From: a virus
Virus record (IMG/VR): IMGVR_UViG_3300025821_000001
DNA: 60,097 nt
Strand: one strand, 5' to 3'
Positions 4,583 to 40,074 of this stretch are shown here, piece by piece. The notes under the pieces were generated by a model. It saw only the letters and a list, made by a program, of their open reading frames with translations. It did no database searches and was not told the DNA's origin. Position numbers and translations under genes: made by a program. How positions within the stretch are numbered: position 1 is the stretch's first letter; the number at the start of each line of letters is the position of its first letter.

Positions 4583-7500
4583 TTAGTTGATGTTGTATTT
4601 TTTTGTAAGGGGTTTCTTTTTATTATTCTTTCTTTTACTCTTAGCTTTCTTTAGCATCTTATTTATTATGTTTGACATAGGTAACTGAGTACCTGCACCA
4701 ACAGCTAAAGAGAGGTTCATTATAGCGATAGATAAATCTGCCGCTACTACTGCGTCTATATCATCCTCCTTAACCATTTGCTCCCGCGACTTATTTACTG
4801 TTGCCCCTAGTGCTATTAGGTTATCAACTGCTGGTAGTAGCTCTTTACCTGTAAACACACTAACATCATATTTACTAGATAAATTTATCGGCTTATTCAC
4901 AAAAAAGTTATTCTTTAGTAAATCTGCCAATATTTTTTTATCTTCCTTATCTTCTGCCATATTGTACAGCGCACTTATAACTGCTATTGCTGCGCCCCTA
5001 GACACTTTTCCATACTTACTTACTGCTAGGAATGTCAGTTGGTTTGTTATTAAATCTCCTAAACCTTTAAGGGTAAACATCTCCTCCATTCTCTTTTCTG
5101 CCTCTTCTGCTTCGTCATCATCCCCAAACATTATCTGCGAGGCTAAATAATATACTCCCATCATGTATGAGTATGTAATAGCGTTCATTAAAACACCCCC
5201 TGCGTTAGCTAACTCTGCTGCGTTATTTCCTTTTTTATTTCTAAGGTCTCCTGCGATGAACTTTAAGGATTGGAAAAACTCACCTTGCTCCCTATATCCG
5301 AAATTACCAAAGAATGACACTAACCTACCTTGTGGGGAGTCAGCCTTAAATGTTATAGGTGTACCATCTTCTGACAGCCCTATACCTAAAAATTTAGACG
5401 GTGCTATCTCTACTGATCTCCTAGTCCCCCCTTTTGTCTTTGAGCCATAGATTCTTTCTACTAATTCTTGAGCCTTTGCTGTTGCATCTTTTATTGCTTG
5501 TAGGTTCTGTTCTTTATAAGCCTTATTATTTAAGAATTTTTTTCTGTCAAAAGATTCTCCTGTTATAGACTGAAACTCCCTTCTGAATACGGGCATAAAT
5601 CCTGTTATGGCTGTTAGGTATTCTGGAATAGACATTGTGTAACGTCCAACCTTTATAAAAATATTCTCTCTACCTACCGCTTCCTTTACGCCTCTTCTCT
5701 CTATATCACCTGATTTAAAGTCTGCTATATCTGCACCTGTTAAATCCTCTAATTCTCTTAGGGTGTCCCAAGATTCTTTATTGAAAGTGTCTGCTATACC
5801 TCTTGCACTTCTAACTTTGATTGGGATAGATGTAAATGCAGCTACTATCTCTATTGCTGACCTTATTGGGTCAAATAAGGACTTAGCGTATCTAGCACCT
5901 AACAGTTTAGTTAACATTCGTGGGGTGTTGCCTATTGACTTTTCATAGTCTAGTGATGCGTTGTAATCCCCCTTTATGGCGTTTGCAATAACTCCTGCCT
6001 TTGTTCTACTTATGGTTTTATTAAGTATAGCATTAGTTACGGGCTGTACCTCTGAGAATACATAATCTAATGAAGTGTCCTCAGCGTAGTTAATAACCAT
6101 CTCTGCAATATTAACAGGGTAAACTCCAAATGTAGGTCTCAGGGATTCTGTTACTTTTTCCTTTCCTTGTTTTGCTTGTGGGCTAAACTTATCAAACTTC
6201 TTAGTTGTTGCGTCAACATCTCCTATTCTACCTTTTCTTTGTGTTGGTACATAATACACTTGAGGGTTAAACTCTATGCCCCTTCTTAAGTTAGCTGCTT
6301 CTTGTCTGTCCCTACCCTTTTCAAATACCTCTTCTGCTGTTTTTAGCATCTTTCGTTCGCGGGGGTTGAGTAAACTTTCATAGTTTTCTGATAGTACTTG
6401 TACATCTACATACCCCTCTTCTGTTTTTGGTAGGCTCTCGTAGAACTCCTCTATATTCTTTCGTTCTCGGTTGTCCCACATTGACTTAGCTTGTCCCTTC
6501 TTATGGTACTCCTTTTCGCTTTCTGATAATCCTGCCGCATCCATAGCTGCTTCATTACCTAACCAGATGCCAAATATATCTCTGTTCCCTACCTCAACTC
6601 CATCTGCTTTTGTACCACTACCAAGTAGTGATGCTTCTCTTAGATACTGCGCAATTATACCCACCCTATTAAAGCCTCGCTCATCTCTCCTAAAAATACT
6701 AGGGGACGATGCTTTTAAAAAGTCTTTAAGCATTGTGTCAGACATCTTCTTAGCCCTTGTAAAAGCATTACTCATAGGTTGATACACCATCTTGTATATC
6801 TCATCCCTCTGTGAGTTGAGTATATTTCTTACTCTTTGTGCCGCCTCTTTTGTACCTAATCTATCAATCCACGCTTTAACGCTTAACCCCTTGGGGTCAA
6901 TTTCTTCAATAGCGTCAACAAGTTTATCTACCCTCTTTGATTTACTTGCAGCAAATTCTCTAAGGTCTGATATTTCTTTAAATGGGATATTCCCCGCTAT
7001 AATAGCCTCAGCCGCATCGTTAAACCTGCTTAACCAAGCAGCGTCATCAACCTTCTCAGCCTCTAACAGTAGTCTAACCTCGTCTGCCTCTACGCCATCA
7101 AGAGTTAACCCCTTTAGTTTTAAAACACTCTTTTTGTATTTTTTACTCTCTTGTACTGTGAATTTGTCTAGCTCTTTTTTAAATATATCTACTTGCTCCT
7201 TTAACTTAGAGTTTAACTCCTCAGCTTTTTCCTCTGTTATAACCCCATCCTTAACTGCCTTGTCTATTGCGTTCTTAGCCCTTGTTAAGTTACCTCTTGA
7301 TTGTGATGCTAATTGAGCCGTAGTTATTTTATTAGACTCTATATCTATCTCTATTTCTTCTTCTAATTCTCTTACTAACTCTGGGTCTATGTCTTGTTCT
7401 GAATCTAAATACTCTCCAATTATTTGTTGTCTTTCTACTTCAAGATTTATGAACTGAGAGAAGGTTTCTGCTTTTGCTCTCTTTTTCTTATAATCCTTTA

Positions 7501-10500
7501 TCTTTTCGGTAATGCTTTTTTGTGGGGTGTTCTTTTGCTGCTCTGCTACCTCTTTATTATACTTAGATAATAACTCATTAATATCTGCAACAGTTGTTGT
7601 TGGGGATTTAGTTAATAAGTCATCCGCAATTTTTTCTATTTCGTCTAATAGGTTTTCATCTTCAATCTTCTTAGCGTTAATCTTAGAGAGTGCTTTTGCT
7701 GCTTGCCCTACCTTGGACTTTCCTCTAGCCATCTTTCCAGCCCTCTTTACTTTAGAGTTTACATTAGACTGCTTCTGTTTTGTGGCTGCATCTTTGAATC
7801 CCTTTTCAATATCAGTTAAAAACTCATCTACAGCCTTCTTGGAAGCTAGGTCTGTATTGTTTAATTTCTTTAGCCAATTAGCAGATTGATTAACTGTTAT
7901 ACGTCCACTCTTTTCTAAGTCGTTAATGTAATCAGATATACCCTTTCTTACAGCCTTTTCATCCCCTACGCTGGCAAGAATAGATAGCTTTACTTTCCCA
8001 ATTTTTTGTTTACTCCCTTTCTCTAATACACTATTCCTATACTCTATAGCCTTATCATAATCATCAAAAGATTTCTCTTCTATATCTAATTCATTATTAG
8101 GGTCATATACCATTGCAACAACATCTGGCTTTCCATGCTCTGCTTCGTTCCATCCTTCAGGAGCGAACTCTTCATTAAATGGAGTTCTAGAAACAATTCT
8201 AAATCCATTTCTTTGATAAACCTTTGTTAAGTAGTTATCAAAGTTATCTAGCATTTTACCGCCTTGCTTTACAGCCTGTTTTAATATATTGTCTGCTACG
8301 CCTTTCTTTTTACTATCAGGGTCTTTAAATACCCCTGTAATATCTCCATCAGGTTTAACAAAAGCTGCACCACCATCAACACGAACAACAGTACCATCAG
8401 TTCCTTCTGGAACTTCTGATACAGACCAATATTGCTTTGTGTCTGAATCTTTAACTTCTTTTAGCTCTTGAAAGTAGGAATCATTTTCTTTCTTACCTTC
8501 TTTGGCATCTTGTTCTTGTATTTTGTACTTATTATTTTTAAAGTCGTAAGATATATCTATATTATCTACTTCGCGTATGTTATTTCCGTCAAAGTAGAAT
8601 AGTTTATCTGCCCCATTTTCATGAAAGCCTTTTTCTATATCTCCTGACCTAACTGCATCTTTTAAATCTTCGGGGGATGACCAATCTGTTATATTTTCAT
8701 TAGTAACTTCTCCTGATTTTGCAGAATATGATTTAGCTTTGTACTTATTAACGTCCTCAGATTTTGAAGGTCTGTAACCATAAGATGAATCACCCTCAAA
8801 TATAAAGCCTCTTTTTTTATACCAATCTTTTAACTGCTTATCTGTAAGTCCTAGTTCTCCCTTTTTTAATCCCTGCTTAGTTTCTGTTGCTCCTTTTGAG
8901 TCTACTATTAATGATACAGACATATCACTCTCGTCTGCCGCATCTAGTATATTTTTTAACTCTTTTGATGCCAACCCTTCTCCACGATTTTTGTCTACCC
9001 CTATAAAATCTATTTGAATATCTCCTTGAACCTCTTGACCATTTATGTCAACAACATCATTATCCTCTCTCAATGTAACTTCTACTCCATCAGGTGTTGT
9101 ATAGTTATAGCCTTTTTCTCCAAATCCTGCGTCTACCTCATTAAATTCCCCTCCACTGAGTCTATCCGTTAGTCGGCTGACATCCTTGTTTGGTACACCC
9201 TCTGCTTCTTTTGTAGTCTCTTCTGTAGTTTTTTGCATTTCTACAGGCTTAACTAATACAGGAAGGTCTATAGATATTTTATAGGTAAGTCCTTTTTTTG
9301 TTATAGTTGCGTTTATTCCTGGATATGCTTTTTTTACCTCAGCTAATTCTGTTTCTGCTTCTGATTTTACTGGTGTTGAAAATTCATTAAATGCACTCTC
9401 TCCTTTCTCTTCTAAAGACTCTTTTGTTGCGGCACTATATTTTGTAGGTCTTGTTACTACATTCCCATCTTCATCTACTTTTTCTACAAGTCTTGACTTA
9501 TTATAAGTTCGTAAACCGCCTTTAGATATTGTTGTAGTTTCAACAACCTCTACATTATTAGGTAATGCATTTTCTGCGGATGTAATTATATTCTTAAACA
9601 CACCGCTTTCAGAAGTTTGCATTTTAGCAGAGAACATATTTGTTGGTTTACCATTTTCGTAAACCCTTACATAACCTACAAAATTACCTTCATTTGTAGC
9701 GGTAATTATAGCATCCACGCTCTTCGTTTCAGGATTTACATACGTTGCTGTTGTGACCCCATTCTTGTCAGTAGTTGTAATGTCTGAAATTTCAGCCGCT
9801 CCGTAAGGTAGTCTCTTGTCTTTGTGTTGGTCTCCAAATAAATTCTCCTGTTCTTTAGTTCTATTTTCTAATCTTTGTTCTGCGGTAGTTTCTTCTGTTG
9901 TAGTTTCTTTAGTAGCAATACCCTCTGTTGCTAGTTCTGTTAATTTTTTATCTATTACGGCTATCTTAGCTTGCTCTCCTCCTCGTTGTGTTGGGTGGAG
10001 TGATCCCATCTCAGCTTCTAGTTTTTCTCTTTCAGCTAGGAGTCTTATACTTTCCTCTCTGTTATTGTTTGTTGGAGATAATTCAGAGTCATACTTTAAT
10101 ACTCGATTTATTTTATCTTGTGATATGTTGTACCCCTCTTCGGTTAATGCACCTGATTGATACATCCCCTTAATTTTCTCAGTTAATTGTTCTAGGTCGC
10201 CTTTACTGTTGAGTACTTCTTTTATCTCTTCGTCTGTTAATTCTTGTGTGGGTTTGTCAATAACAGCTTTAGTTTTCCTTAAAGAAGCCGCCCCCTTACC
10301 CATACCAAAAAGTAGCATACTTCCTGCAAATGTAGATGCACCTGTTTCTGCTGCATCTTTTGTAAAGGTTGCGTTAAAACTTTCTTTTAAGAAAGCCTTT
10401 CTACCCTCATCCGTTTTTATGCCTCCGTTTTCTAGTGCTGCTTTGTTTGCTTTTTCTACTGACTGTTGAAAAATCTCTGTCCCTGATTCTTTTAGAGATG

Positions 10501-11827
10501 CAACAGATATGTCTTTACCTAATGAGACTAGTTTAGGTATATTTTTTTTGACTTGATCTTTAACCCCAGCCTTAAATATTGAGTTTCTCATAAGGTTGGC
10601 AGCCGTACCCAATCCGTAAAATTCTGATGCTGTTGCTAATCCTGCTGAAAGAAGTGCTGTGGTTTCGTCTTCTAGGTCTTCCGCAATAATATCTTCCTCT
10701 TTTTTACCTGTCTCTTTTGCCTTAGCTCTTACGGCTTCCATGTACATAGGTGCGCCTATTTCCCCAAACGTACCCATACCCATAGTAGCTGTGCTTGTGA
10801 CCATAGACCTTAAAAAGTCTACTGCCGTACCTACAGCCGCAGCCGAAGCCTTGTCAATCTCTCCTTTTTCTAGGCTTTCTAAAAACGGTAGTGTAGGTTT
10901 TAATTTTTCCTCTGTATCTTGTATTTCTTTATATGCCGCCTGTTGTTGTGTTACACTTTGACTTGCTCCTCTAACTAATTGTTTAGTTTTATCTGATATA
11001 TCTTGACCACTTAATATTCCATATAAAGCAATAGGTAAACTGACAGTAAAATCTTCTGATAACTGCTCCCCTAATAATATGGTCTTAGCGGGTATTAAGC
11101 TAGTCATAAGCGCAGAATTATACAACGCATTACCTATACTCTCTAATGGTGAAAGTTGGTCTATCTGTTCTTGATAAGCTAGGTCTATAGCTGCTTGCTT
11201 ATCCTTAACTACAATATTAAGTTCTTTAAACGCTTTATCGTTTACATTCTCATTTACTTTTTTTAACTCTTCGTTAAGTTTAAAGTTTGTTTGGAGTTTT
11301 TGGTTTACTTGTGTATTAACTTTTTCATAGTAACTATTCAGTCCCTCGTTAGCTTTATTAGCATCAATCTCTCCTCTATCTAAACTGTCTTGAAGTTCTT
11401 GCCTTTTTTGCTGTAGGAGTGGCTCGTAAGAGTCCATCATCTTTTGCCTTACATCTTGTATAGGTAATTCGTCAACAAGTTTCTTTCTCTCTATACTTGC
11501 GTCAAGAAGTATTTGCTCTTGACGCTTAATGTATGGGTCTTTTATATTAGATATAAGTTCTTCCCTAGAAGCTACCCCTACAGGTAACTCTTGCTCTACA
11601 AGTGGACTAGGAGTTCCACTCTCCTCTGAAGGCTGTGGTCGTTGTATACCTAATAAATTAGAATATGCTTCTTCATCACCGTCAAAATCTTTCTCTTTAA
11701 ATGTGTTAAAGGATAAATTAAAAAAATCATTATTGGATTGTAATAACTTAGTAAAATCTTCTTTACTACCCTTAAATCCTTTAGCAAGAGATAAGTTCCA
11801 TGCGTCTTGTAATGCGTCTTCTTCCAT
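4583..11827 (-). CDS. giant multidomain virion-associated protein (2414 aa), candidate internal/ejected polyvalent protein with two GNAT-like signatures
   Basis: Uninterrupted 7.2-kb ORF in the structural arm, so the CDS itself is near certain. It has coiled-coil-like N-terminal third, GNAT motif-A-like RGEGLA and KKKGVA segments each followed by a ...Y..(R)GF segment, and hydrophobic segments plus a Lys-rich tail at the C-terminus. Function is inferred. Confidence 0.55.
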   Translation of the reverse strand: MEEDALQDAWNLSLAKGFKGSKEDFTKLLQSNNDFFNLSFNTFKEKDFDGDEEAYSNLLGIQRPQPSEESGTPSPLVEQELPVGVASREELISNIKDPYIKRQEQILLDASIERKKLVDELPIQDVRQKMMDSYEPLLQQKRQELQDSLDRGEIDANKANEGLNSYYEKVNTQVNQKLQTNFKLNEELKKVNENVNDKAFKELNIVVKDKQAAIDLAYQEQIDQLSPLESIGNALYNSALMTSLIPAKTILLGEQLSEDFTVSLPIALYGILSGQDISDKTKQLVRGASQSVTQQQAAYKEIQDTEEKLKPTLPFLESLEKGEIDKASAAAVGTAVDFLRSMVTSTATMGMGTFGEIGAPMYMEAVRAKAKETGKKEEDIIAEDLEDETTALLSAGLATASEFYGLGTAANLMRNSIFKAGVKDQVKKNIPKLVSLGKDISVASLKESGTEIFQQSVEKANKAALENGGIKTDEGRKAFLKESFNATFTKDAAETGASTFAGSMLLFGMGKGAASLRKTKAVIDKPTQELTDEEIKEVLNSKGDLEQLTEKIKGMYQSGALTEEGYNISQDKINRVLKYDSELSPTNNNREESIRLLAEREKLEAEMGSLHPTQRGGEQAKIAVIDKKLTELATEGIATKETTTEETTAEQRLENRTKEQENLFGDQHKDKRLPYGAAEISDITTTDKNGVTTATYVNPETKSVDAIITATNEGNFVGYVRVYENGKPTNMFSAKMQTSESGVFKNIITSAENALPNNVEVVETTTISKGGLRTYNKSRLVEKVDEDGNVVTRPTKYSAATKESLEEKGESAFNEFSTPVKSEAETELAEVKKAYPGINATITKKGLTYKISIDLPVLVKPVEMQKTTEETTKEAEGVPNKDVSRLTDRLSGGEFNEVDAGFGEKGYNYTTPDGVEVTLREDNDVVDINGQEVQGDIQIDFIGVDKNRGEGLASKELKNILDAADESDMSVSLIVDSKGATETKQGLKKGELGLTDKQLKDWYKKRGFIFEGDSSYGYRPSKSEDVNKYKAKSYSAKSGEVTNENITDWSSPEDLKDAVRSGDIEKGFHENGADKLFYFDGNNIREVDNIDISYDFKNNKYKIQEQDAKEGKKENDSYFQELKEVKDSDTKQYWSVSEVPEGTDGTVVRVDGGAAFVKPDGDITGVFKDPDSKKKGVADNILKQAVKQGGKMLDNFDNYLTKVYQRNGFRIVSRTPFNEEFAPEGWNEAEHGKPDVVAMVYDPNNELDIEEKSFDDYDKAIEYRNSVLEKGSKQKIGKVKLSILASVGDEKAVRKGISDYINDLEKSGRITVNQSANWLKKLNNTDLASKKAVDEFLTDIEKGFKDAATKQKQSNVNSKVKRAGKMARGKSKVGQAAKALSKINAKKIEDENLLDEIEKIADDLLTKSPTTTVADINELLSKYNKEVAEQQKNTPQKSITEKIKDYKKKRAKAETFSQFINLEVERQQIIGEYLDSEQDIDPELVRELEEEIEIDIESNKITTAQLASQSRGNLTRAKNAIDKAVKDGVITEEKAEELNSKLKEQVDIFKKELDKFTVQESKKYKKSVLKLKGLTLDGVEADEVRLLLEAEKVDDAAWLSRFNDAAEAIIAGNIPFKEISDLREFAASKSKRVDKLVDAIEEIDPKGLSVKAWIDRLGTKEAAQRVRNILNSQRDEIYKMVYQPMSNAFTRAKKMSDTMLKDFLKASSPSIFRRDERGFNRVGIIAQYLREASLLGSGTKADGVEVGNRDIFGIWLGNEAAMDAAGLSESEKEYHKKGQAKSMWDNRERKNIEEFYESLPKTEEGYVDVQVLSENYESLLNPRERKMLKTAEEVFEKGRDRQEAANLRRGIEFNPQVYYVPTQRKGRIGDVDATTKKFDKFSPQAKQGKEKVTESLRPTFGVYPVNIAEMVINYAEDTSLDYVFSEVQPVTNAILNKTISRTKAGVIANAIKGDYNASLDYEKSIGNTPRMLTKLLGARYAKSLFDPIRSAIEIVAAFTSIPIKVRSARGIADTFNKESWDTLRELEDLTGADIADFKSGDIERRGVKEAVGRENIFIKVGRYTMSIPEYLTAITGFMPVFRREFQSITGESFDRKKFLNNKAYKEQNLQAIKDATAKAQELVERIYGSKTKGGTRRSVEIAPSKFLGIGLSEDGTPITFKADSPQGRLVSFFGNFGYREQGEFFQSLKFIAGDLRNKKGNNAAELANAGGVLMNAITYSYMMGVYYLASQIMFGDDDEAEEAEKRMEEMFTLKGLGDLITNQLTFLAVSKYGKVSRGAAIAVISALYNMAEDKEDKKILADLLKNNFFVNKPINLSSKYDVSVFTGKELLPAVDNLIALGATVNKSREQMVKEDDIDAVVAADLSIAIMNLSLAVGAGTQLPMSNIINKMLKKAKSKRKNNKKKPLTKKYNIN
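11580..11636. repeat. segment of the giant gene made of two blocks identical to the 817-aa gene
   Basis: 11580-11601 equals 13789-13810 (22 nt) and 11603-11636 equals 14034-14067 (34 nt). Encodes PSEESGTPSP..VEQELPVG. Confidence 0.85.
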
Positions 11828-16672: not shown

Positions 16673-19600
16673 TTATAATGAACTCTCAGATATGAAGAAC
16701 TGAACTCCCATACTAGCTAACTTAGCTTGTGTGGTTGCGTCACTCAATAGTCTTATTGTTCCGTACTTACCTCTTAGGTCATAGCCCTCTAAAAGAGCGT
16801 TTGTCCTATTTGGTGTTAAAGTGTCTTGTCTAAATCCTGCTGCCCACTCATTAGGTTGGTACTCGCTGTAGTAGTTCTCAAATAGTTGACTTGTCTGATT
16901 ACCATCTTCTATGTTTATGTCTCCATCTGTTTCTGATGTCCATACACTGTTAGCTTCTAGCTCTATGGTTTGTAATCTTTTTTGTTTATCGGGGGCGGTG
17001 TTAAAAGGCATGGTAATCTCTGCGTTTTTAGCCACTCCATAAAGACTTCCATAAGCATTGTTAGTATTATGCACCCACAACCCGCCATCTTTAAAAGAGG
17101 AAAAGTCTACTCCCGTTGTAACCATATAGTCAGGGGTAATATCTGAAAATGATACCCAAGAGTTAGACGGCTCATTGAACATTGGAGTGTCTATTCTATA
17201 TCTTAACCAAGCTGCTGTTATTGTATTAGCACCTACTTCTAATACAATAGTAGCGTTATCATCACTGTTTACAGTAATACTTAACCCCGTTTGGTAATAA
17301 TAGTCTGTGCCATCAAAAAGAACTATGCCCTCTACAAGATCAGCTAAGTTACCACTAAATGCGTTCTTTAAAGTAAATGATAGATTTGAACTAGCTCCAC
17401 CCAAGCCTGTTGCTTGTGCGTAACCCATAATACTTACAGTATAGTTCTGTAACCTTTCATCATAAACTCCTAATATCTTTCTATCTGCTGCGTAAACATC
17501 CTTAACGTCAAGGTTCTCATTGAACCACGTTGTCATTCCGTAGTCACTTATCTCTTGTATTCCGTTAGAGCTAAGTCTGCATATTGCATTATTCCTACTA
17601 CTTGGGAAATAGTGTGTTTCGTTATACTTATCAAACCCTTCTGGATTAGTCCCTATACCCCCATCATACTCATAGTAGTTAATACCGTTTAACAGTGCTG
17701 TTGTTTGGTAAGTAATCTCTGATGAATCTTGTTTTGCAAGTTCTTCAAGAATACCTATCTGCCCTACCTTATCTTCAAAATAGACTATGAGCTGTTTGTT
17801 TTGTCTGAGTGATGCTTTCTGTATCGACCCAAAAGAGTCGTCATAAGTTTTAATAGAACTGCCAAGAACAATACTAAGTCCATTTGTCGTGCTTTGTGGT
17901 ATTATAGGCTGTGTAAATGCTATAGCTGCTCCCCTTTGAATTTGGTCTAATCCTGACTCTGTTACTACGTTAGGTCTTCCTATGGCTGTAACTGCTGAGT
18001 CGTAGTATGGAGAGAAGTCATTAGCTTCTGTTATCATGTGTTCTGTGTCATCAACAATTGACCCTCCAGTATATGTTACTATACCTAATGCGGGGGTTAG
18101 TCTACTCCAAGTGTCTCCTGCGTCTGTTATGTCTATAATAGCCCCTCTAACTGCGTTTTGTGTCTGCGTGTTCCCCGTATGGTATCCCCCTGTAATATTA
18201 TAGTGATGCCCTATCTCACTATATACAACAGGCTTGGTATTTGATGTAGGTCTAACTACTTCTGCTAAAATTATCCCTGCCTCATCCTTAGCAATACTAG
18301 GTGTAAGTGTAGACAGGTCAAAGTTAAACAATACGAAGTTGGTGTTTACTTCGTTTATCTTTATTAAGGGGGCTGAGTTAAAATATGTAAATACACCTGC
18401 TGTTGGGGACGCAGGAGGAGGGTCAGTTGTTGCATCCGTTTGGACATATTTTGCAATAGGTCTTATTAAATCTCCGTCAACATAGTTATACTGCTGTGCT
18501 TTTGAGCCAAATTCTTTTATATTAAAATCATTTACTGAAAAAATGCTAACTGCATATAGGTCGTTATTAAGAAAAGAAGGGGATATTGTTATAGCACCTG
18601 TCCAAGAAGATGTATTATGTGAAATAGTCTCGTCTGTGAATGTGCCACTAGCTACCCCTATCAATAAACTTCCTGCTGTTGAATTGGATACATCTCCGTA
18701 TCCTACAATAAGCCCAACAGCAGATGCGCCATCAACTTGTTGTCCAATTAGGGGTAATGTACCTGTTCCTGCCGTGTATGAAACATTTATAACATAGTAT
18801 GCGCCACAAAATATTTGTAGTAACTCAGGTGCATTTTTAGCATATAATATATCGTAGCTGTCTGCGTCTGTTGGGGGGGTGTTTTCTATTATTACTCTAG
18901 CTGAAACTGAGCCGTCATTAGTAGTTGAATCAAATCCCTCAGAATAAAAACTATCTAACGGTATGGCAGAGCTTCTACGTCCATTCTTGTTGTATTGAAG
19001 TGCGAAGAAGTGTTCTCTGTATCTCTTAAAGTTGGGTTCTGATACTGTTGTATTATCTATGCCTATGAGACCTATTCCTACTGATGTTATTCCTGTTGTT
19101 GGTGTGTATGGGGATACTTGCTGGTTTACCCCATATATAAGCCTTACGACACTCCCTACAGCGTAGGCTACTATTCCTCCAAACCCTAAATATCTTGTAT
19201 CAACGCTATTTATTTGGTCTGCTATAAACTGAGCAAAGCTAGATTGTGTTTCCCCCTTTCTTGCTCTTGCTGTTATACTTACTACTTGCGATGCTGGTGT
19301 TACGGGAATACTCCCCGTAACAAGTAGGTTTAAATTTATGCCGAACGTATACCCATACTGTAACCCGCTATTAACGGTCAGTGTTTTAAAATGAGGTGAT
19401 GTATTAATTAAAATATCAAAATTAGGGTTGTAGTATGACCCCGCAGTTAATATAGATGTACCATTAAAAGTAATTGTAGATGATGAACCTGATGATCTTG
19501 TATTATAAATAGGTAGTGTTTGTCCTGCTACTTCTACATCTGCATCAAATCCCTCAGTGATGTTTAAAAAAGCTAGTACGTTACTTGGGAGAAATACTAC

Positions 19601-20575
19601 TTCTTTTGCTCTTGGGGGGATAAAAGAAAAAGGCATAGCCATCTCTGTCTGGTCTACCGCTTCTAGTGGTTCATCCCCTGTATAAACAATAGCTACCCTG
19701 TCGGTCTGATTTAGGTCTATCTCATCATAGGTAAGCTCTCTGAACTTATACCATATACCCATTGTATTATCGTCTGCCCCTGACTGAACAAGCAGTTCTA
19801 CCTTTTCTACTTGGTCACTGTCAGGTAACTCAACAGGTATTGTAATTGCGTTATCATAGTAAAATGAATCCGAAAAAGTTTGTGCCTCTTGTTTTAATTC
19901 CTCGTACTGAGGGTGTGTTAGTTTTGATATTCTTGATGGGTGTGTTCTAAACCCTCCCTTATACACATATCTTGTTCTAAACTTGTATAGCTTACCTACT
20001 AAGTTATTCTTTTTTATAGATGATGAACTAAAGAAATTTGGCTCTAATGGTGTGGGGTTTGGTATCTTGTAAAGCTCTACTAATGCTCTGTTAGCTGTTG
20101 TGATTGTTGTTGCGGGTAGGTTCTCTAAATCAATACAGCCTATCTCTTGGTCTTCCTGAGTCCAAACTAAATATCTGTCAAGTACAAGAACAATACCTGT
20201 GATAAGTTCGTTGAACATGAAACCTAGTCCTACTCCCTCTGCCAACTGAGTAAATGCTCCGTCTGATAAATTATACCCGTAGCTTACTACTTCATGGTCT
20301 CCATTACCATTCCAAATAAAGTAATATACTGTCTCTAGTCCCTTATCATCATACGCTCCTATGCAGATGTTATCTCCTGCATTTAGTGTGTAAGATTTAG
20401 AGGTGTTTCCCTTTAGGTTTGTGACTACAAAGTTATTGCCATTAACCATATAAGATACGTTCCTAGCGTTTGTATAGAAACCATTTTGGACATAGCGGGG
20501 GTCTGTGTCTTTATCCATTCCACCTTTTCTAGCTCCACCACCGCTATTTACAAATATTCTTTTATCTACAGGCAT
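16673..20575 (-). CDS. large tail/nozzle-type structural protein (1300 aa)
   Basis: 3.9-kb ORF in the structural arm, beta-rich composition. Assignment is by size and position only. Confidence 0.45.
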   Translation of the reverse strand: MPVDKRIFVNSGGGARKGGMDKDTDPRYVQNGFYTNARNVSYMVNGNNFVVTNLKGNTSKSYTLNAGDNICIGAYDDKGLETVYYFIWNGNGDHEVVSYGYNLSDGAFTQLAEGVGLGFMFNELITGIVLVLDRYLVWTQEDQEIGCIDLENLPATTITTANRALVELYKIPNPTPLEPNFFSSSSIKKNNLVGKLYKFRTRYVYKGGFRTHPSRISKLTHPQYEELKQEAQTFSDSFYYDNAITIPVELPDSDQVEKVELLVQSGADDNTMGIWYKFRELTYDEIDLNQTDRVAIVYTGDEPLEAVDQTEMAMPFSFIPPRAKEVVFLPSNVLAFLNITEGFDADVEVAGQTLPIYNTRSSGSSSTITFNGTSILTAGSYYNPNFDILINTSPHFKTLTVNSGLQYGYTFGINLNLLVTGSIPVTPASQVVSITARARKGETQSSFAQFIADQINSVDTRYLGFGGIVAYAVGSVVRLIYGVNQQVSPYTPTTGITSVGIGLIGIDNTTVSEPNFKRYREHFFALQYNKNGRRSSAIPLDSFYSEGFDSTTNDGSVSARVIIENTPPTDADSYDILYAKNAPELLQIFCGAYYVINVSYTAGTGTLPLIGQQVDGASAVGLIVGYGDVSNSTAGSLLIGVASGTFTDETISHNTSSWTGAITISPSFLNNDLYAVSIFSVNDFNIKEFGSKAQQYNYVDGDLIRPIAKYVQTDATTDPPPASPTAGVFTYFNSAPLIKINEVNTNFVLFNFDLSTLTPSIAKDEAGIILAEVVRPTSNTKPVVYSEIGHHYNITGGYHTGNTQTQNAVRGAIIDITDAGDTWSRLTPALGIVTYTGGSIVDDTEHMITEANDFSPYYDSAVTAIGRPNVVTESGLDQIQRGAAIAFTQPIIPQSTTNGLSIVLGSSIKTYDDSFGSIQKASLRQNKQLIVYFEDKVGQIGILEELAKQDSSEITYQTTALLNGINYYEYDGGIGTNPEGFDKYNETHYFPSSRNNAICRLSSNGIQEISDYGMTTWFNENLDVKDVYAADRKILGVYDERLQNYTVSIMGYAQATGLGGASSNLSFTLKNAFSGNLADLVEGIVLFDGTDYYYQTGLSITVNSDDNATIVLEVGANTITAAWLRYRIDTPMFNEPSNSWVSFSDITPDYMVTTGVDFSSFKDGGLWVHNTNNAYGSLYGVAKNAEITMPFNTAPDKQKRLQTIELEANSVWTSETDGDINIEDGNQTSQLFENYYSEYQPNEWAAGFRQDTLTPNRTNALLEGYDLRGKYGTIRLLSDATTQAKLASMGVQFFISESSL

Positions 20576-33172: not shown

Positions 33173-33500
33173 GATGTATAAAGTTCATAATACTGCCAAC
33201 AGCAGCTTTCTCCTTTAGTGATGTTTTATCATCTAGGTTAAGTCCGTTAGTCTTTAAGTCTTGTATTCTCTTTACAATTTCGGGGAGGTCTTTTAAAAAC
33301 ATCTTACCCCTATCAAAAGTCTTGTCTTTAGCGTCCTCTAAGTTCTCAACTAAGTTATTACCCTCTAAATAGGTTATAATATCCTCAGCTTGCTTCTCAA
33401 GTGCTTTGATAGCTCTGTTTGATATATTGTCTGCTAACAGATACTCTATAATATCTATGTAGTCCTTCTCCTTTTTTCCTTTTAGCTTTTCTCGTAACAT
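33162..33500 (-). CDS. hypothetical protein, possible terminase small subunit (position only)
   Basis: 112 aa, helical and charged; overlaps the terL start by 11 nt. Confidence 0.3.
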   Translation of the reverse strand: MLREKLKGKKEKDYIDIIEYLLADNISNRAIKALEKQAEDIITYLEGNNLVENLEDAKDKTFDRGKMFLKDLPEIVKRIQDLKTNGLNLDDKTSLKEKAAVGSIMNFIHRED

Positions 33501-34219
33501 CCTAATATGTATTGAAATCTTACTGCGGCTAAATTATCAAATGGTAATTTGTTGTTGGTGGATTTAAGAAACACAACTTCTCCCTCAAGTCCGTACTTGT
33601 TTGGTCTAGCCACTCTTGCCCGACCTCTTTGGGTTACTTCTCTTTTAGTTCTATATATTCCATTTACTGCGCTATATTCCTCTCCTTCGTCTAAGACCTC
33701 AAGGATGACAAAATTATCCATTGACACCCCTTTAGATTCGTTATAGACGATAAAGTTAGGTCTAAGAAATACTTTATCTATGTAGTCAAACTGATAAGGG
33801 CTGTTTGTATATGTCCATACTACTTCTCCGTCTACTATAAACTTGTGTGTTTCGTACTCCTCCTTTTGAGATAAGTCTGTTATGATTAGGGAGTCTGTTT
33901 TCTTTTTTGCGGGGATTTTATCTGCGGGTATCATTACCCCACTTAACCACTCGTCACCTCTTTGTATAGCTATAATTGAGCTTTCGGGGAGATCTATGTA
34001 GTTCTTGCCGTCCTTCTTGTAAATACGTTTAGCCTCAAAGTGCATAAAGTAGGCTAAGTCACCTTCCCTAAACTTTGCAGCTATTGGGGTTTTAAGAATT
34101 TTTCCGTGCTTGGGGACTAGGTCGTGCTGTTCTCCTATTCTATCAAGGTATAAGCCTCCGTCTGTTTTATAAAAGGAGTCTACGTCCACCTCTATGTGGT
34201 AATGCTTTACTGGAATCAT
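33482..34219 (-). CDS. hypothetical protein (245 aa), weak GroES-like beta-barrel-type segments
   Basis: ORF track; TATCTTTG box upstream. Segments HGKILKTP...GDLAYF and FVILEVL...GRARVARP...GEVVFL loosely recall Cpn10 strands. Confidence 0.5.
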   Translation of the reverse strand: MIPVKHYHIEVDVDSFYKTDGGLYLDRIGEQHDLVPKHGKILKTPIAAKFREGDLAYFMHFEAKRIYKKDGKNYIDLPESSIIAIQRGDEWLSGVMIPADKIPAKKKTDSLIITDLSQKEEYETHKFIVDGEVVWTYTNSPYQFDYIDKVFLRPNFIVYNESKGVSMDNFVILEVLDEGEEYSAVNGIYRTKREVTQRGRARVARPNKYGLEGEVVFLKSTNNKLPFDNLAAVRFQYILGCYEKS

Positions 34220-35410: not shown

Positions 35411-35696
35411 AATACCCTGCCATTTTTAACATTAATTCCATTTCTTTCTCATCTGAGTTAGGCTTCTTGTTTGTTACCTCTACCCCTGAGAAATCCCCTT
35501 CAAAGCTCTTAAACTCAAACGGTGTTCCGTCTTCATCTTCTGCAACGATAAGAAATGCTTTCTCTTTGAACTTAGCCTCGTGGTATTTATTTCTCCGTAT
35601 CTCAATAATCCTGCATCCGTTTATTGTCTGCTCGATTTTATATCTTGAAACGTACCCCCCAACGTGGTCTACTCGTATTGCGTATATTGTTTCCAT
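35403..35696 (-). CDS. hypothetical protein (97 aa from internal ATG)
   Basis: ORF-track frame 35403-35741. The ATG at 35696 (METIYAIRVD...) avoids a 41-nt overlap with the upstream gene. Confidence 0.5.
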   Translation of the reverse strand: METIYAIRVDHVGGYVSRYKIEQTINGCRIIEIRRNKYHEAKFKEKAFLIVAEDEDGTPFEFKSFEGDFSGVEVTNKKPNSDEKEMELMLKMAGYYE

Positions 35697-35700
35697 CTCT

Positions 35701-36063
35701 TTATTTAAACGTAAAGTTTCTTTTAATAAGATTGTTGTCAAAGACTAAATCCTTTTTCCACACTCTGTAACAGTCCTCAATAAAGTCTGAGATTGTTTTT
35801 GGTGCGGGGAGTACTGTGGATTCAAACTGATCTGCTTCATCTCTTATACAATATAGTACCGTATCTGTCTCTTCATCATGGATAGTTGAGAATAGCTCCC
35901 AATCATCTCCTACTACAACTTCGGGAAAAGCAAAGGTCTGTTCTACAGCCTCTATACTAAACTCTTGTCTGTAGGTGTTAATGATGTTACAGATAGTAAC
36001 CTTCCAATCTTTTGCGGGGAAGACCTCATCCTCTAAAAAATCACTTAATGGCTTTGCTTGCAT
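35701..36063 (-). CDS. hypothetical protein (120 aa)
   Basis: ORF track; TAGATTTG box 24 nt upstream. Confidence 0.55.
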   Translation of the reverse strand: MQAKPLSDFLEDEVFPAKDWKVTICNIINTYRQEFSIEAVEQTFAFPEVVVGDDWELFSTIHDEETDTVLYCIRDEADQFESTVLPAPKTISDFIEDCYRVWKKDLVFDNNLIKRNFTFK

Positions 36064-36087
36064 ACTTTATTGATTATCTTTATATTG

Positions 36088-36095
36088 CAAATCTA
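36088..36095 (-). promoter_or_regulatory. promoter -7 box TAGATTTG
   Basis: 24 nt upstream of ATG 36063. Confidence 0.4.
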
Positions 36096-36131
36096 CAACT
36101 TATATCTTACCTACGCAAGGAATATTTTATG

Positions 36132-36139
36132 TAATTTTG
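36132..36139 (+). promoter_or_regulatory. promoter -7 box TAATTTTG
   Basis: 8 nt upstream of ATG 36148 (near-leaderless arrangement). Confidence 0.35.
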
Positions 36140-36147
36140 TAATTAAT

Positions 36148-36369
36148 ATGGAAAAGCTAAAAATCACCTACCTTGACGAAGAGGGAAACGAGTCTTTTGA
36201 GGAATATACTGTTGACCCTGATGTGATTGATTATGTCTCTGATCTTGAGTTAGAGAGTGCTTATATGTTTGGTAACTGTATTGCCTTGCAGGAGGAGATA
36301 GAATCTCTTAAGTTGATTGTTGAGGGGTATAAAATCTTAGCCAGTGGTAAGACCCCAACAGAGAATTAA
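36148..36369 (+). CDS. hypothetical acidic protein (73 aa), lone plus-strand gene inside the minus arm
   Basis: ATG at 36148 (MEKLKITYLDEEGNE...) preceded by TAATTTTG at 36132-36139. It is the only ORF covering a 300-bp stretch. Confidence 0.45.
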   Translation: MEKLKITYLDEEGNESFEEYTVDPDVIDYVSDLELESAYMFGNCIALQEEIESLKLIVEGYKILASGKTPTEN

Positions 36370-36581
36370 GCTATCTTTACTTCTTTGTAAAACTCAGGGT
36401 CAATCTCTCGTATCCATCTTTCTGTTCGGGCGTACTTCTTTTCAAAAGCTGTCTTGCTGTACTTAGGTTTATTTGCCACAAGGTATACCTGAGATTTTAA
36501 TGCCCTATCTAAGTGCCACTTTCTTAGTTCTACTTCCCCTTCTTCACATTTATGGCATTTGAGCATTATTACTTCTATCAT
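36366..36581 (-). CDS. hypothetical protein (71 aa)
   Basis: ORF track; 4-nt overlap with upstream ORF. Confidence 0.5.
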   Translation of the reverse strand: MIEVIMLKCHKCEEGEVELRKWHLDRALKSQVYLVANKPKYSKTAFEKKYARTERWIREIDPEFYKEVKIA

Positions 36582-36991
36582 ATTAAATTAGTTTTTAGGT
36601 GTTTTTTTGAATGAAGTATCCACAGGTTCTCCGTAACTAAGTAGGATGTATAAAGTGTAGCGTATTCGCTGTCATCTATTATCTCTTTTACAGAGCTGTA
36701 CTTCTCTTCTTTAATTAGTTCTATTATTTTAGGGTTTATAGTTTCTTCGGGGAAGTCCTCTGTTAGGTGTAGTCTTACTTCCTCTTCTAGCTCATCTACT
36801 GTTGCTGTTGGGGATATGTAGAAGTAAAAGTTGTCTTCTTCTCTTACCCTAAGTACAACACCCGCATTTAAACATTCAATTAAATACTCAGAAGAGAAAG
36901 TCTCTGACTTATCAAAATACTTATCTCCAAATTGAATGTGATCTAATAGGTGATAACTGTACCCCCTAGAAGTAAAACTCTTTTTAATCAT
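36578..36991 (-). CDS. hypothetical protein (137 aa), first gene of the minus arm
   Basis: ORF track; borders the large divergent non-coding region. Confidence 0.55.
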   Translation of the reverse strand: MIKKSFTSRGYSYHLLDHIQFGDKYFDKSETFSSEYLIECLNAGVVLRVREEDNFYFYISPTATVDELEEEVRLHLTEDFPEETINPKIIELIKEEKYSSVKEIIDDSEYATLYTSYLVTENLWILHSKKHLKTNLI

Positions 36992-37104
36992 AGCTTCTCT
37001 CCATTTCTAATTTTATAAAAAAACTTTGCTGTTTTTTTTTCTATAGCCCTAAGCCTAAAATCAGCGATGTATTTAAATAAAAATTTAATTTTTTGTTTCA
37101 TACA

Positions 37105-37112
37105 GCAAATAT
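37105..37112 (-). promoter_or_regulatory. promoter -7 box TATATTTG (start of the minus arm)
   Basis: 113 nt upstream of ATG 36991. Confidence 0.4.
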
Positions 37113-37218
37113 AGTAAATATCTGTTACAAATAACAAACAGTGTAATTTATTTTGTTTTTGTTGTGAATTAGTTGAGTAACTACTAAGTAAGTTACAGTA
37201 GATAAGTGACTGTTGTTA

Positions 37219-37252
37219 ATAACTCACTCCTCAAAATGGGTTGTGATGTAGG
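37219..37252. repeat. copy 1 of a ~35-40 nt imperfect direct repeat (ATAACT..CTCAAAATGGG..TGATGTAGG)
   Basis: Aligns by eye at roughly 80 percent with 37315-37354. Confidence 0.5.
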
Positions 37253-37280
37253 AAACTTAGATGCCTAAAAGAAATCCCCC

Positions 37281-37302
37281 CTACCCCCCTTTCGGGAGGT
37301 AG
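37281..37302. other. stable GC hairpin in the divergent non-coding region
   Basis: CTACC-C-CCC / TTTC loop / GGG-A-GGTAG (8 bp plus one C-A mismatch). Confidence 0.6.
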
Positions 37303-37314
37303 AGGTGAAATCAA

Positions 37315-37354
37315 ATAACTTTACTCATTCTCAAAATTGGGAGTGAATGTGAGG
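37315..37354. repeat. copy 2 of the imperfect direct repeat
   Basis: ATAACTTTACTCATTCTCAAAATTGGGAGTGAATGTGAGG compared with copy 1. Confidence 0.5.
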
Positions 37355-37622
37355 TATCCTTTTTCAGCCCTGTACTGGAAAAAATCCTAATCCAAGCATA
37401 CAGTAGTTTTATTAGTACAAGTAGAAGATAATAACTCCACTGACTTTTATTGCACAGTATTTGTACTTAAGAGGAAAAACATTTAAAATAACCCCTACTT
37501 ACGCCAACGTTATCTGTTGCGATTAGGCTCCCTTATTCTAAGCGGGGGTATGGCACTTTTTCAAGCTGCTCCCATACGATGTATTTTATTAGACTGCAAG
37601 TTTTATATGAGCAATCTAAATG

Positions 37623-37630
37623 CAAAGATA
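37623..37630 (-). promoter_or_regulatory. promoter -7 box TATCTTTG firing into ORF-free DNA
   Basis: Minus-strand TATCTTTG with A/T-rich upstream sequence; no ORF longer than 11 codons for the next roughly 630 nt. Confidence 0.35.
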
Positions 37631-37673
37631 TAAATAAATTTTAATAAAAAACGCATTGTGTGATATTTTTTCT

Positions 37674-37681
37674 TATATTCG
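37674..37681 (+). promoter_or_regulatory. possible promoter -7 box TATATTCG (one mismatch) for the helicase gene
   Basis: 21 nt upstream of ATG 37703. Confidence 0.2.
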
Positions 37682-37702
37682 TATAAGAAATTGAATATCA
37701 AT

Positions 37703-39076
37703 ATGTTTAAACTAAGAGACTATCAAACAAACGCTGTTAATGACGCTTTAGGATTTATAAAAGATAAATCAGGTAGGGCTTCTTTGTTAGTACTCCCAAC
37801 AGGCGCAGGAAAGTCTTTAGTTATTGCAAATATAGCTAAAGAAATAAACCAACCTGTTTTGGTTATACAGCCGTCAAAAGAGTTGCTGATACAGAATTAT
37901 GAAAAGTATAAATCTTACGGATTAGAGGCGTCAATATATTCAGCGTCTATGGGTATAAAAGAGTTGGGTCATGTGACATTTGCTACACCGAGGTCAATAG
38001 CCAAACACCACCCTTTAATAAGAAAGAAAAATATTAAGTTGGTAATTGTAGATGAAGCGCATTATGGCAGTTCAGTGGGACAAACCTTAGACACTTTTTG
38101 TAAAAAGGCGGGGGTTGAAAAGATAATAGGATTAACAGCTACTCCTGTATTATTAGCTAATGGAATGTTTGGTTCTGAGTTAAGAATGTTAAATAGAACA
38201 AAGAAGTCAATTTATCAAAAGATACTTCACGTTACTCAAATAGAAGACTTGTGTAATGACGGATATTGGACTAAGCTAGAATACGAGCCGATAAAAACAG
38301 ACACAAAACAACTTAAGTTGAACTCTAGTGGTAGTGAGTTCTTAGAGGAGTCTGTCAGAAAATACTACCAAGCTAACGAGATGAACGACAAAATAAAAGA
38401 TTCTTGTGACCAACTGATAGAAGAGGGAAGAAACCACATACTTTGCTTTGTTTCATTAGTTGACGAGGCAAAAGAGTTACAGAGAAAGATGAAATCATAT
38501 AGTACTGTAATATATGGAGATATGCCAAGTAAAGACAGAGAAAGGGCAATTAATAGCTTTAAAAGCGGTAAAATAAAAATTGCTATTAATGTAAATGTTT
38601 TAGGTACTGGGTTTGATTTTCCTAAGTTAGATGGATGTGTTCACGCAAGACCAACAAGCAGTATAGGAATATACTACCAACACTTAGGTAGATTGGTAAG
38701 GACACACCCCGATAAAAAAGACGCAAAAATTATTGACCTTTCAAGTAATTACTTTAGGTTTGGTAAATTAGAGGGTATAAGATTTGAACTGTCAACAGAT
38801 GCTAATGGTTGGTGTATGAGATCGGGTAAAAAAATACTTACTGTTTTTAGTAGACCCGATGTTGAGGTTGAATACAAACCGAAATTAAGAAAAGAGGTAC
38901 AGAACATAAACACTTATATAATACCTTTTGGTAAGTATAAGGATAAAAAGGTAACAGAAGTACCCTTAAATTATTTAAAGTGGATAGCGTCAGACGAGTT
39001 TAGTGGAGAGTACAGTAAAGCTGCGCAATTTAAAACCGCAGCAAAAATAAGGCTCGCATTAGAATCCCCCGCATAA
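37703..39076 (+). CDS. SF2 DEAD/DEAH-box DNA helicase
   Basis: Walker A LPTGAGKS, DEAH box VDEAH, motif III TATP, motif VI QHLGRLVR. I prefer ATG 37703 over the TTG at 37691 used by the track. Confidence 0.8.
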   Translation: MFKLRDYQTNAVNDALGFIKDKSGRASLLVLPTGAGKSLVIANIAKEINQPVLVIQPSKELLIQNYEKYKSYGLEASIYSASMGIKELGHVTFATPRSIAKHHPLIRKKNIKLVIVDEAHYGSSVGQTLDTFCKKAGVEKIIGLTATPVLLANGMFGSELRMLNRTKKSIYQKILHVTQIEDLCNDGYWTKLEYEPIKTDTKQLKLNSSGSEFLEESVRKYYQANEMNDKIKDSCDQLIEEGRNHILCFVSLVDEAKELQRKMKSYSTVIYGDMPSKDRERAINSFKSGKIKIAINVNVLGTGFDFPKLDGCVHARPTSSIGIYYQHLGRLVRTHPDKKDAKIIDLSSNYFRFGKLEGIRFELSTDANGWCMRSGKKILTVFSRPDVEVEYKPKLRKEVQNINTYIIPFGKYKDKKVTEVPLNYLKWIASDEFSGEYSKAAQFKTAAKIRLALESPA

Positions 39077-39108
39077 ACCACAAGAATTAAAACTGTATAA
39101 AGAAACCA

Positions 39109-39137
39109 CTTAACATAAATTTAACATTGACTGTAAC
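39109..39137. repeat. phased TTAAC array (opposite orientation)
   Basis: CTTAAC at 39109, TTTAAC at 39120 (+11), TGTAAC at 39132 (+12); upstream of 39161. Confidence 0.45.
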
Positions 39138-39148
39138 AGATTAATTAT

Positions 39149-39156
39149 TACTATTG
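39149..39156 (+). promoter_or_regulatory. TACTATTG box (variant -7 box or start-context element)
   Basis: Same octamer at 54446 and 56552; 4 nt upstream of ATG 39161. Confidence 0.3.
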
Positions 39157-39160
39157 TACT

Positions 39161-39355
39161 ATGAAACTAAAAAAGAAAGTAGAAGTAACCCACTACTGCC
39201 CCAAGTATAACAGCAAGACAAGAACACTTATTGACGCAAAGGATGAAGAAGGTCTGTTTAGCATTTGGAATAAGGGTACAGCAGTAAAAAGAACAGTGAC
39301 TAATAGGGGGTGGTACTTAACTCTATCAATAAACAACAAATTCAAACTGATATGA
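39161..39355 (+). CDS. hypothetical protein (64 aa)
   Basis: ORF track; TACTATTG box 4 nt upstream. Confidence 0.5.
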   Translation: MKLKKKVEVTHYCPKYNSKTRTLIDAKDEEGLFSIWNKGTAVKRTVTNRGWYLTLSINNKFKLI

Positions 39356-39624: not shown

Positions 39625-39632
39625 AAGAAACT

Positions 39633-39824: not shown

Positions 39825-39826
39825 AT

Positions 39827-40069: not shown

Positions 40070-40074
40070 TAAAT

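Follow-up and report, generated by a model that had tools for sequence, protein, structure and literature searches.

Here, we describe a giant open reading frame (ORF) in a 60,097-nucleotide stretch of viral DNA (IMG/VR record IMGVR_UViG_3300025821_000001; the whole stretch is hereafter called the window) that encodes two segments resembling GNAT acetyltransferases. The ORF occupies positions 4583..11827 on the minus strand, and, as seen in the list of ORFs and their translations, its product of 2,414 amino acids (aa) contains both segments, denoted domain 1 and domain 2. The source is an uncultured podophage of the flavobacterial type. The following features of the ORF are analyzed in detail.

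4583..11827, minus strand: giant ORF, carrier of domains 1 and 2 and largest gene of the minus-strand structural block
8528..9250, minus strand: domain-1 module (aa ~860-1100), the part common to other giant proteins and to solo proteins of ~240 aa
8705..9148, minus strand: GNAT-like core of domain 1 (aa 894-1041), predicted from a hidden Markov model (HMM) envelope (E 9e-62), AlphaFold2 (AF2) and Foldseek
8969..8986, minus strand: putative motif A of domain 1, R948-G-E-G951-L-A953, in a strand-to-helix loop
8804..8821, minus strand: Y1003-K-K-R-G1007-F1008 of domain 1, from alpha4 to beta6
8003..8515, minus strand: domain 2, predicted GNAT-fold domain (aa 1105-1275; HMM envelope aa 1111-1268, E 3e-65; AF2; Foldseek)
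8294..8311, minus strand: 'motif A' of domain 2, K1173-K-K-G1176-V-A1178, in a strand-to-helix loop
8201..8218, minus strand: Y1204-Q-R-N-G1208-F1209 of domain 2, from alpha4 to beta6

Paired GNAT-like motifs in the giant protein

An initial annotation, made by reading the sequence alone, had marked the interval 8093-9145 (aa 895-1245 of the 2,414-aa ORF) as encoding two GNAT-like acetyltransferase signatures. The peptides quoted there are present letter for letter in the translation, IQIDFIGVDKNRGEGLASKELKNILDAADESDMSVSLIVDSK at aa 937-978, LTDKQLKDWYKKRGFIFEG at aa 994-1012 and AAFVKPDGDITG...YQRNGFRIV at aa 1154-1212; these strings correspond to the cores, and the extent assigned to the segments has to be enlarged, with the domains spanning aa ~894-1041 and ~1105-1275. 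A relaxed composite pattern, [QRK]xxGx[GA] followed by a gap of 25-60 aa and YxxxGF, has only two matches in the giant protein, both of which are the quoted stretches, and YxxxGF by itself occurs at aa 1003 and aa 1204 only.

Motif definitions of this kind are short and degenerate, and no programs were run for the initial annotation, which favors an explanation by chance, the giant protein being long, rich in Lys and Glu and of low complexity. When its residues were shuffled 5,000 times, however, one or more composite matches were obtained in 1.2% of the shuffles and two or more in 0.02%; furthermore, both segments belong to conserved domains, with 45 and >130 homologues and confident GNAT-like models. 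Chance is thereby refuted, with a negligible probability in our estimate, and the paired motifs are confirmed as a non-random feature of the protein.

Two families of GNAT-fold domains

An exhaustive phmmer search with aa 895-1030 against 1.84 billion representatives identified 45 homologues of domain 1 at E<=1e-3, including 12 at E<=1e-30, all 45 cluster representatives being metagenomic; a word-indexed homologue search with the same domain returned nothing. Roughly half of the homologues are giant proteins of 2,300-5,700 aa in which the domain is located mid-protein, and the rest are fragments or solo proteins of ~240 aa. Because aa ~860-1100 is the only part of the giant ORF that BLASTP aligns with 23 large homologues, the domain-1 module is, judging from these alignments, a mobile cassette. 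The cassette of ~240 aa comprises a short leader, a core of ~130 aa and a C-terminal extension of ~70 aa (8528-8737, aa ~1030-1100) that is conserved and accompanies the core in giant and solo proteins alike. For domain 2, a profile search identified 133 homologous proteins, most of which have a length of 220-300 aa and carry the domain (~165 aa) C-terminally, and the word-indexed search returned three proteins only.

AF2 models built on the family alignments are confident for both domains, with a predicted local distance difference test (pLDDT) of 91.6 and a predicted template modeling score (pTM) of 0.83 for domain 1, and a pLDDT of 93.3 and a pTM of 0.87 for domain 2. The model of domain 1 consists of six N-terminal strands, a loop, a helix, a strand, a helix and two strands; RGEGLA forms the loop between a strand and the next long helix, and YKKRGF lies at a helix-to-strand junction. 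The model of domain 2 starts with a long N-terminal helix and continues with three strands, a loop, a helix, a strand, a helix, two consecutive strands and a C-terminal helix, with KKKGVA in the loop between a strand and a long helix and YQRNGF again at a helix-to-strand junction.

When the models were compared with the PDB using Foldseek, the best match of domain 1 was the anti-CRISPR AcrVA5 (6iuf; E 6e-4, template modeling (TM) score 0.71 on the target), followed by KacT and TacT2, with ~40 more GNATs in the top 50, at a probability of ~1. In the BFVD database, domain 1 matched small phage acetyltransferases and a 'structural protein' of Tenacibaculum phage Gundel_1. The top 50 PDB matches of domain 2 were all GNATs and included the IAA acetyltransferase 1y9k, 6ao7, AAC(2'), PaiA, NatC and RimI. 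Because the AF2 models are confident and the Foldseek matches are almost exclusively GNATs, the identification of both segments as GNAT-fold domains is supported at the level of the predicted fold, in domain 1 by the core beta4-alpha3-beta5-alpha4-beta6(-beta7). The model of domain 1 departs from the canonical GNAT: its N-terminal half is all beta, and in this it resembles the 'minimal' GNAT AcrVA5.

Searches with sequences and profiles agree with the structural matches at lower significance. In searches of the PDB with the family profiles, the top matches were GNATs for domain 1 (3mgd, 4m85, 4mbu, 1u6m, 7oju) and for domain 2 (2kcw/YjaB, 2qec, 1q2y), aligned from motif A to alpha4, with E-values of matches to PDB GNATs ranging from 0.03 to 2.4; single-sequence PDB searches with either segment produced noise only. 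Pfam yielded no match on the domain 1 segment of the giant ORF and no GNAT model (clan CL0257) above the gathering score, and single domain-1 relatives match Acetyltransf_1 (E 1e-4), _7, _CG, _15 and _9, with overall E-values of 1e-4 to 1e-2. On domain 2, Acetyltransf_10 scores 17.4 bits (E 0.0046), below its cut-off of 23.6; Acetyltransf_7 matches 11 of the 103 domain-2 relatives (best 9e-5); the NCBIfam YjaB model PRK10514 gives weak matches (E 0.067 for domain 2); and PHROG 2563 (phrog_2563), labelled 'unknown function', matches at E 1e-9. Taken at the sequence level, the evidence for GNAT membership is consistent and weak.

An origin of the two domains by duplication was rejected: hhalign aligned only a 15-residue stretch around YxxxGF, with a probability of 4%, and the families are not detectably related in sequence. 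Within the family HMM sets, the two domains were found together in one other protein only (P0022), in the reverse order.

The structural matches raise one special case of the injected acyltransferases proposed below, namely, that domain 1 is a growth-arresting toxin of the TacT/KacT/AtaT type that acetylates aminoacyl-tRNA and shuts off host translation on entry. KacT (5xun) and TacT2 (7ak7) occupy ranks 3-5 of the Foldseek PDB list, but their E-values and TM-scores are no better than those of many other GNATs, no sequence-level match to these toxins was obtained with the domain 1 profile against the PDB, the N-terminal half of domain 1 differs, and, the domain being embedded, no antitoxin-like partner can be assessed. 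We consider a toxin of this type very improbable.

Conservation of candidate active-site residues

In the 34-sequence alignment of domain 1, conservation is concentrated in the pyrophosphate loop and alpha3 (R948, 30/34; G951, 34/34; A953, 30/34; S954, 30/34; also E956 and D965) and between alpha4 and beta6 (W1002, 32/34; Y1003, 29/34; G1007, 33/34; F1008, 34/34). Further conserved residues are N908, Y909, E916 and D936 in the N-terminal strands, S970 and D976 in the beta5 region, and G1017, Y1018 and R1019 in the last strand. Among the 103 domain-2 sequences, Y1204, G1208, F1209 and W1226 are invariant, and D1162 (97/103) and D1194 (101/103) are nearly so, these being candidate active-site residues; G1161, L1193, Y1241 and R1264 are conserved as well. 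The tyrosine of YxxxGF, four residues before G-F (Y1003 and Y1204), presumably occupies the position of the general-acid tyrosine of RimI-type GNATs. The pattern in both families suggests positions conserved as expected for catalysis, and, because conservation of this type is joined by the existence of solo proteins for both domains, active acyltransferases appear more likely than inert folds.

The initial annotation had read both segments as a beta strand, motif A, a helix and Y-x-x-x-G-F, an order with which the AF2 models of both domains agree, and the structure prediction it called for returned confident GNAT-like folds with GNATs as Foldseek matches. The Pfam search that it proposed had a divided outcome, with the gathering score reached by no GNAT model on either segment and Acetyltransf families matched by scattered relatives. 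Motif A (Q/R-x-x-G-x-G/A), proposed for both segments, holds for domain 1, where R948, G951 and A953 are conserved in the beta4-alpha3 loop to which PDB GNATs align. In domain 2, the glycine alone is conserved: only 8% of the family members have V1177-A1178, an insertion of two residues, and conservation does not extend to the leading K/R (K1173).

Distribution of the two domains in phage genomes

Relatives of domain 2 are found in several settings. In T7-like phages, solo genes precede the RNA polymerase gene in the class I early region at the left end, for example, in a 46-kb metagenomic contig and in Pseudomonas phages Achelous, Nerthus, Njord and Alpheus, and some of these early genes are already annotated as 'GNAT family N-acetyltransferase'. 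Other solo copies belong to replication or mixed modules of phage contigs. The domain is also fused C-terminally to minor head proteins of the MuF/SPP1-gp7/VG15 type in Microbacterium phages, a Methanobrevibacter virus and the protein P0055, with MuF (PF04233/TIGR01641) fusions in UtzChips, vir075 and P0055. Finally, a relative is contained in a 3,125-aa protein of Limnohabitans phage DC33, together with ART-PolyVal (E 2e-21). The taxonomy line of DC33 reads Inoviridae, an assignment that seems incorrect given a genome of 39 kb and a protein of this kind.

Solo genes of domain 1 (P0005 and P0011) are located in long phage-like contigs of up to 136 kb, a few genes from Gad2 (anti-Gabija family PF26128) and Pyr_excise (pyrimidine-dimer excision enzyme); the same neighborhood contains two or three orphan DNA methyltransferases of the N6/N4 and Dam types, YqeY and DUF7788, and looks like a phage counter-defense island. 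The P0005 gene spans 787 bases for a 243-aa product, and its translation with table 11 differs from the query; the mismatch could stem from a frameshift, intron or recoding event in the contig.

PQ492659.1, 22242-31619: giant ORF of DC33 (3,125 aa), with ART-PolyVal and a GNAT of the domain-2 family
L014, 10001-10729: solo domain-1 gene P0011
L012, 8001-8787: solo domain-1 gene P0005

Among records of cultured phages, domain 1 has no significant match except for a distant copy in Gundel_1. A resemblance of domain 1 to the virion RNA polymerases of N4-like phages, another class of giant packaged proteins, was considered and rejected (tblastn E 0.9-4, not significant); the similar stretches lie in Stenotrophomonas phage Pokken (49187-49384) and Xanthomonas virus PB119 (49834-50049).

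Because relatives of the two domains are class I early genes, parts of MuF/SPP1-gp7 fusions, a component of an ART-PolyVal protein and neighbors of Gad2, these contexts point to activity at or right after DNA entry.

Genomic context and a probable link to the virion

The giant ORF is the last in a series of minus-strand genes that, according to PHROG matches, runs from a GroES-like gene through TerL, portal, structural proteins and a 1,300-aa protein, such that its upstream neighbors on the same strand match PHROG portal, TerL and virion structural proteins. The portal shares 24-26% identity with its counterparts in Maribacter phage Panino, the Cellulophaga phages phi38:1, phi40:1 and Calle, and the Flavobacterium 'elemo' phages.

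33485-34219, minus strand: GroES-like co-chaperonin (PHROG 3188, E 5e-6), just upstream of TerL
16676-20575, minus strand: 1,300-aa ORF, both ends of which match the 'virion structural protein' gp97 of phi38:1 (E 3e-11 and 6e-7)

The structural blocks of the related phages end with a 1,691-aa 'structural protein' or a 1,829-aa protein, an order that parallels the giant-ORF locus. The latter protein, Panino CDS0069 (35432-40921), is annotated as a 'tRNA methyltransferase'. The comparison suggests that the enzymatic cargo of the large proteins at this position varies from phage to phage. In Gundel_1, a cultured flavobacterial podophage, the giant gene of the structural block encodes gp074 (YP_010356829.1, 2,482 aa, 'structural protein'), with a domain-1 relative at aa 892-964, almost the same position as in the giant ORF (HMM E 1.3e-12); gp074 also matches Acetyltransf_7 (E 0.0018). 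Unlike in the giant ORF, the domain of gp074 is shorter and domain 2 is missing, the rest of the protein is dissimilar by BLASTP, and the GNAT module is unannotated in the record.

Outside the two domains, tblastn with aa 1-880 and aa 1290-2414 gave no match in INPHARED or IMG/VR, and a scan of viral contigs with the giant backbone found no homologue. Because the giant proteins are mutually dissimilar and the rest of the protein is unmatched, position and analogy remain as the grounds from which we infer that the giant protein is packaged in the virion. A role as a membrane-inserting ejection protein was rejected: a hydropathy scan found a single strong hydrophobic segment close to the C-terminus (aa 2359-2377), which is too little for such a function.

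Packaging and ejection being deduced from gene order only, an alternative has to be weighed in which the GNATs are active enzymes that are not injected and instead act late in the cell, on phage components or the cell envelope, with virion proteins, peptidoglycan or polysaccharide, for example, becoming acetylated in the course of assembly or entry. Many domain-2 relatives are encoded by ordinary solo genes that belong to replication or mixed modules, which implies that virion delivery is not necessary for the domain to be useful. Conversely, the repeated fusion of domain 2 to MuF/SPP1-gp7 head proteins, its presence inside the ART-PolyVal giant protein, its class-I early position in T7-like phages and the domain-1 relative in the Gundel_1 'structural protein' all argue against purely late action. 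We regard this alternative as unlikely, while giving it appreciable weight.

Comparison with known phage effectors

Giant multidomain proteins of phages and conjugative elements that are predicted to be packaged and injected have been described as 'polyvalent proteins' (Iyer, Burroughs, Anand, de Souza & Aravind 2017, J Bacteriol, PMC5512222). Their effector domains have been accreted from solo versions, and they are encoded together with the virion genes of portal/terminase phages; GNAT is listed among their protein-modifying domains, in the form of two independently acquired families, called RimI-like, from elements of Proteobacteria, Firmicutes and Actinobacteria, one of the two, which includes BAR32501.1, being usually found beside an ART domain (PMC5512222). 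The giant ORF resembles these proteins in combining two distinct effector-type domains in one very large phage polypeptide and in being encoded among virion and packaging genes, with portal and TerL upstream; in addition, a relative of domain 2 shares the DC33 protein with ART-PolyVal. It differs in that Pfam detects none of the MPTase-PolyVal, ART-PolyVal, helicase/SNF2, methylase and LPD families, in the tandem arrangement of two different GNAT-fold domains and in the non-canonical, all-beta N-terminal half predicted for domain 1. The giant ORF thus is a member of the polyvalent class by architecture and context, not by hallmark domains. With regard to an equivalence of domain 2 with the 'Alice gp113' GNAT family of Iyer et al., tblastn with the domain-2 family consensus found no mycobacteriophage match. 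In five other giant proteins with domain 1, the search for hallmark polyvalent domains gave only a weak LPD38 match (P0016).

The best structural match to domain 1 is AcrVA5 (PDB 6iuf), a small, minimal GNAT of phage or prophage origin that serves as an anti-CRISPR by acetylating Cas12a, a host defense protein. However, identity in the structural alignment is 11-13%, and 6iuf is absent from the domain 1 profile matches at E<=10; moreover, AcrVA5 is expressed as a solo protein of ~92 aa, whereas domain 1 is part of a giant protein of the structural module.

The ADP-ribosyltransferase Alt of phage T4 is the experimental paradigm of a virion-delivered enzyme that modifies the host. In the MuF polymorphic toxins, the computational paradigm of effectors delivered from the head, C-terminal effectors are fused to MuF/SPP1-gp7 (Jamet et al. 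2017, PMC5576092). The arrangement proposed for the giant ORF would follow the same logic of a pre-made enzyme carried in the head and delivered with the DNA, and the domain-2 relatives include fusions to MuF/SPP1-gp7; the predicted chemistry, in contrast, is acyl transfer rather than ADP-ribosylation, nuclease activity or (p)ppApp synthesis. No MuF domain was detected in the giant ORF by Pfam. A precedent for a GNAT in host takeover by a phage of the Autographiviridae type is Rac of the phiKMV-like phages, which is predicted to be a GNAT and targets the transcription machinery of the host (Ceyssens et al. 2020, PMC7552054). Rac is produced after entry, however, and is not part of a giant protein. 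No phiKMV-like phage was found by tblastn with domain 2.

A proposed role in host modification at DNA entry

With moderate confidence, we favor the interpretation that the giant ORF encodes a 'polyvalent'-type protein with tandem, unrelated GNAT-fold modules that is packaged, injected and acylates host targets. The protein would be made late, along with the structural proteins, packaged in the virion and introduced into the cell together with the DNA. Each domain would bind acyl-CoA, most likely acetyl-CoA, in the case of domain 1 via the strand-loop-helix element R-G-x-G-x-A-S, and would move the acyl group to an amine of the host target, with the alpha4 tyrosine (Y1003 or Y1204) protonating the leaving CoA thiolate; candidate bases are D976 or E916 in domain 1 and D1162 or D1194 in domain 2. 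Our leading guess for the target is a host protein, such as a defense nuclease or a component of the transcription or translation machinery, and the purpose may be host takeover or counter-defense in the first minutes of infection, ahead of phage gene expression.

Several observations count against this interpretation. Neither segment of the giant ORF reaches the curated threshold of any Pfam or NCBIfam GNAT model, and the Foldseek TM-scores on the query are moderate, at 0.4-0.5. The model of domain 1 lacks the alpha1 and alpha2 helices before motif A, the beta1-alpha1-alpha2-beta2-beta3 arm being absent, such that the C-terminal half alone is canonical for a GNAT; Y1003 is replaced by Leu in 5 of the 34 domain-1 relatives; and the 'motif A' of domain 2 has G1176 (90/103) as its only conserved position, with no conserved Q/R-x-x-G-x-G/A. 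With regard to delivery, Pfam found no hallmark domains of polyvalent proteins in the giant ORF, BLASTP detected no similarity between the giant ORF and the syntenic phi38:1 gp101 and Panino CDS0069, and gene position is the basis for placing the giant protein in the virion.

The former set of observations would also fit domains that have kept the GNAT fold and have no transferase activity, their role in a large internal protein or ejection protein being to bind (acyl-)CoA or to act as purely structural elements or spacers: every sequence match to GNAT models is sub-threshold, the missing alpha1-alpha2 arm is the one that binds the acceptor, Y1003 is not invariant and motif A of domain 2 is degenerate. 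Yet the conservation is of the enzyme type, involving R948, G951, A953, S954, D936, D976, Y1018 and R1019 in domain 1 and the invariant Y1204 along with the near-invariant D1162 and D1194 in domain 2; both domains occur as solo proteins, unlike a spacer; and AcrVA5, the best structural match to domain 1, is a minimal GNAT that is an active enzyme according to the literature. Non-catalytic modules therefore seem rather improbable to us.

A more specific version of the interpretation as injected acyltransferases is that domain 1 is a pre-packaged counter-defense acetyltransferase that inactivates a host immune protein ahead of phage gene expression, with domain 2 as a second, independent 'warhead' directed at another target. 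This version builds on AcrVA5 as the nearest structural neighbor of domain 1 and on the location of its solo copies near Gad2 and orphan methylases. We consider this version doubtful, and if it were true, domain 1 would be the first injected anti-defense acetyltransferase. A pre-packaged acetyltransferase would address the timing problem faced by anti-defense proteins that have to be expressed. AcrVA5 and Rac illustrate that phage GNATs are able to disable host defense or transcription (PMC7552054 for Rac).

The statement in the initial annotation that a virion-delivered acetyltransferase had not been described for this kind of phage was overstated, because GNAT domains embedded in 'polyvalent proteins' that are predicted to be injected were described in 2017 (Iyer et al. 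2017, PMC5512222). What is new here are, in all probability, two further GNAT-fold families without a curated model; the atypical, all-beta N-terminal half of the domain-1 family, which is found almost only in metagenomes; and the tandem occurrence of both families in one protein of a flavobacterial-type podophage. Provided that both domains are active and enter the cell along with the DNA, the giant protein would offer a tractable case in which a phage injects two different acyltransferases that reprogram or disarm the host. This strategy has been a prediction for polyvalent proteins since 2017, but, to our knowledge, no GNAT has yet been shown to follow it.

Definition of both families would annotate well over 100 dark-matter phage proteins, including T7-like early genes and MuF-fusion effectors, because neither family reaches the Pfam threshold, PHROG 2563 is labelled 'unknown function' and domain 1 is scarce in cultured phages. 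The solo domain-1 genes are candidates for new counter-defense factors, given their neighborhood of Gad2 and methylases.

Other features of the genome

The 1,300-aa ORF (16676-20575) has a weak, sub-threshold match to the C-terminal domain of the crAss muzzle protein (PF25729, E 0.083). No tRNA or tmRNA genes were found in the 60-kb window; the related phages Panino, Calle and Gundel_1 carry 10-20 tRNAs. The arrangement of the GroES-like gene and TerL is also present in Cellulophaga phage phi38:1 and Maribacter phage Panino. Gene orientation changes near 37 kb, with the structural block on the minus strand and the replication genes, including the two below, on the plus strand.

47287-49149, plus strand: primase/helicase, replication gene
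51406-53259, plus strand: DNA polymerase, replication gene

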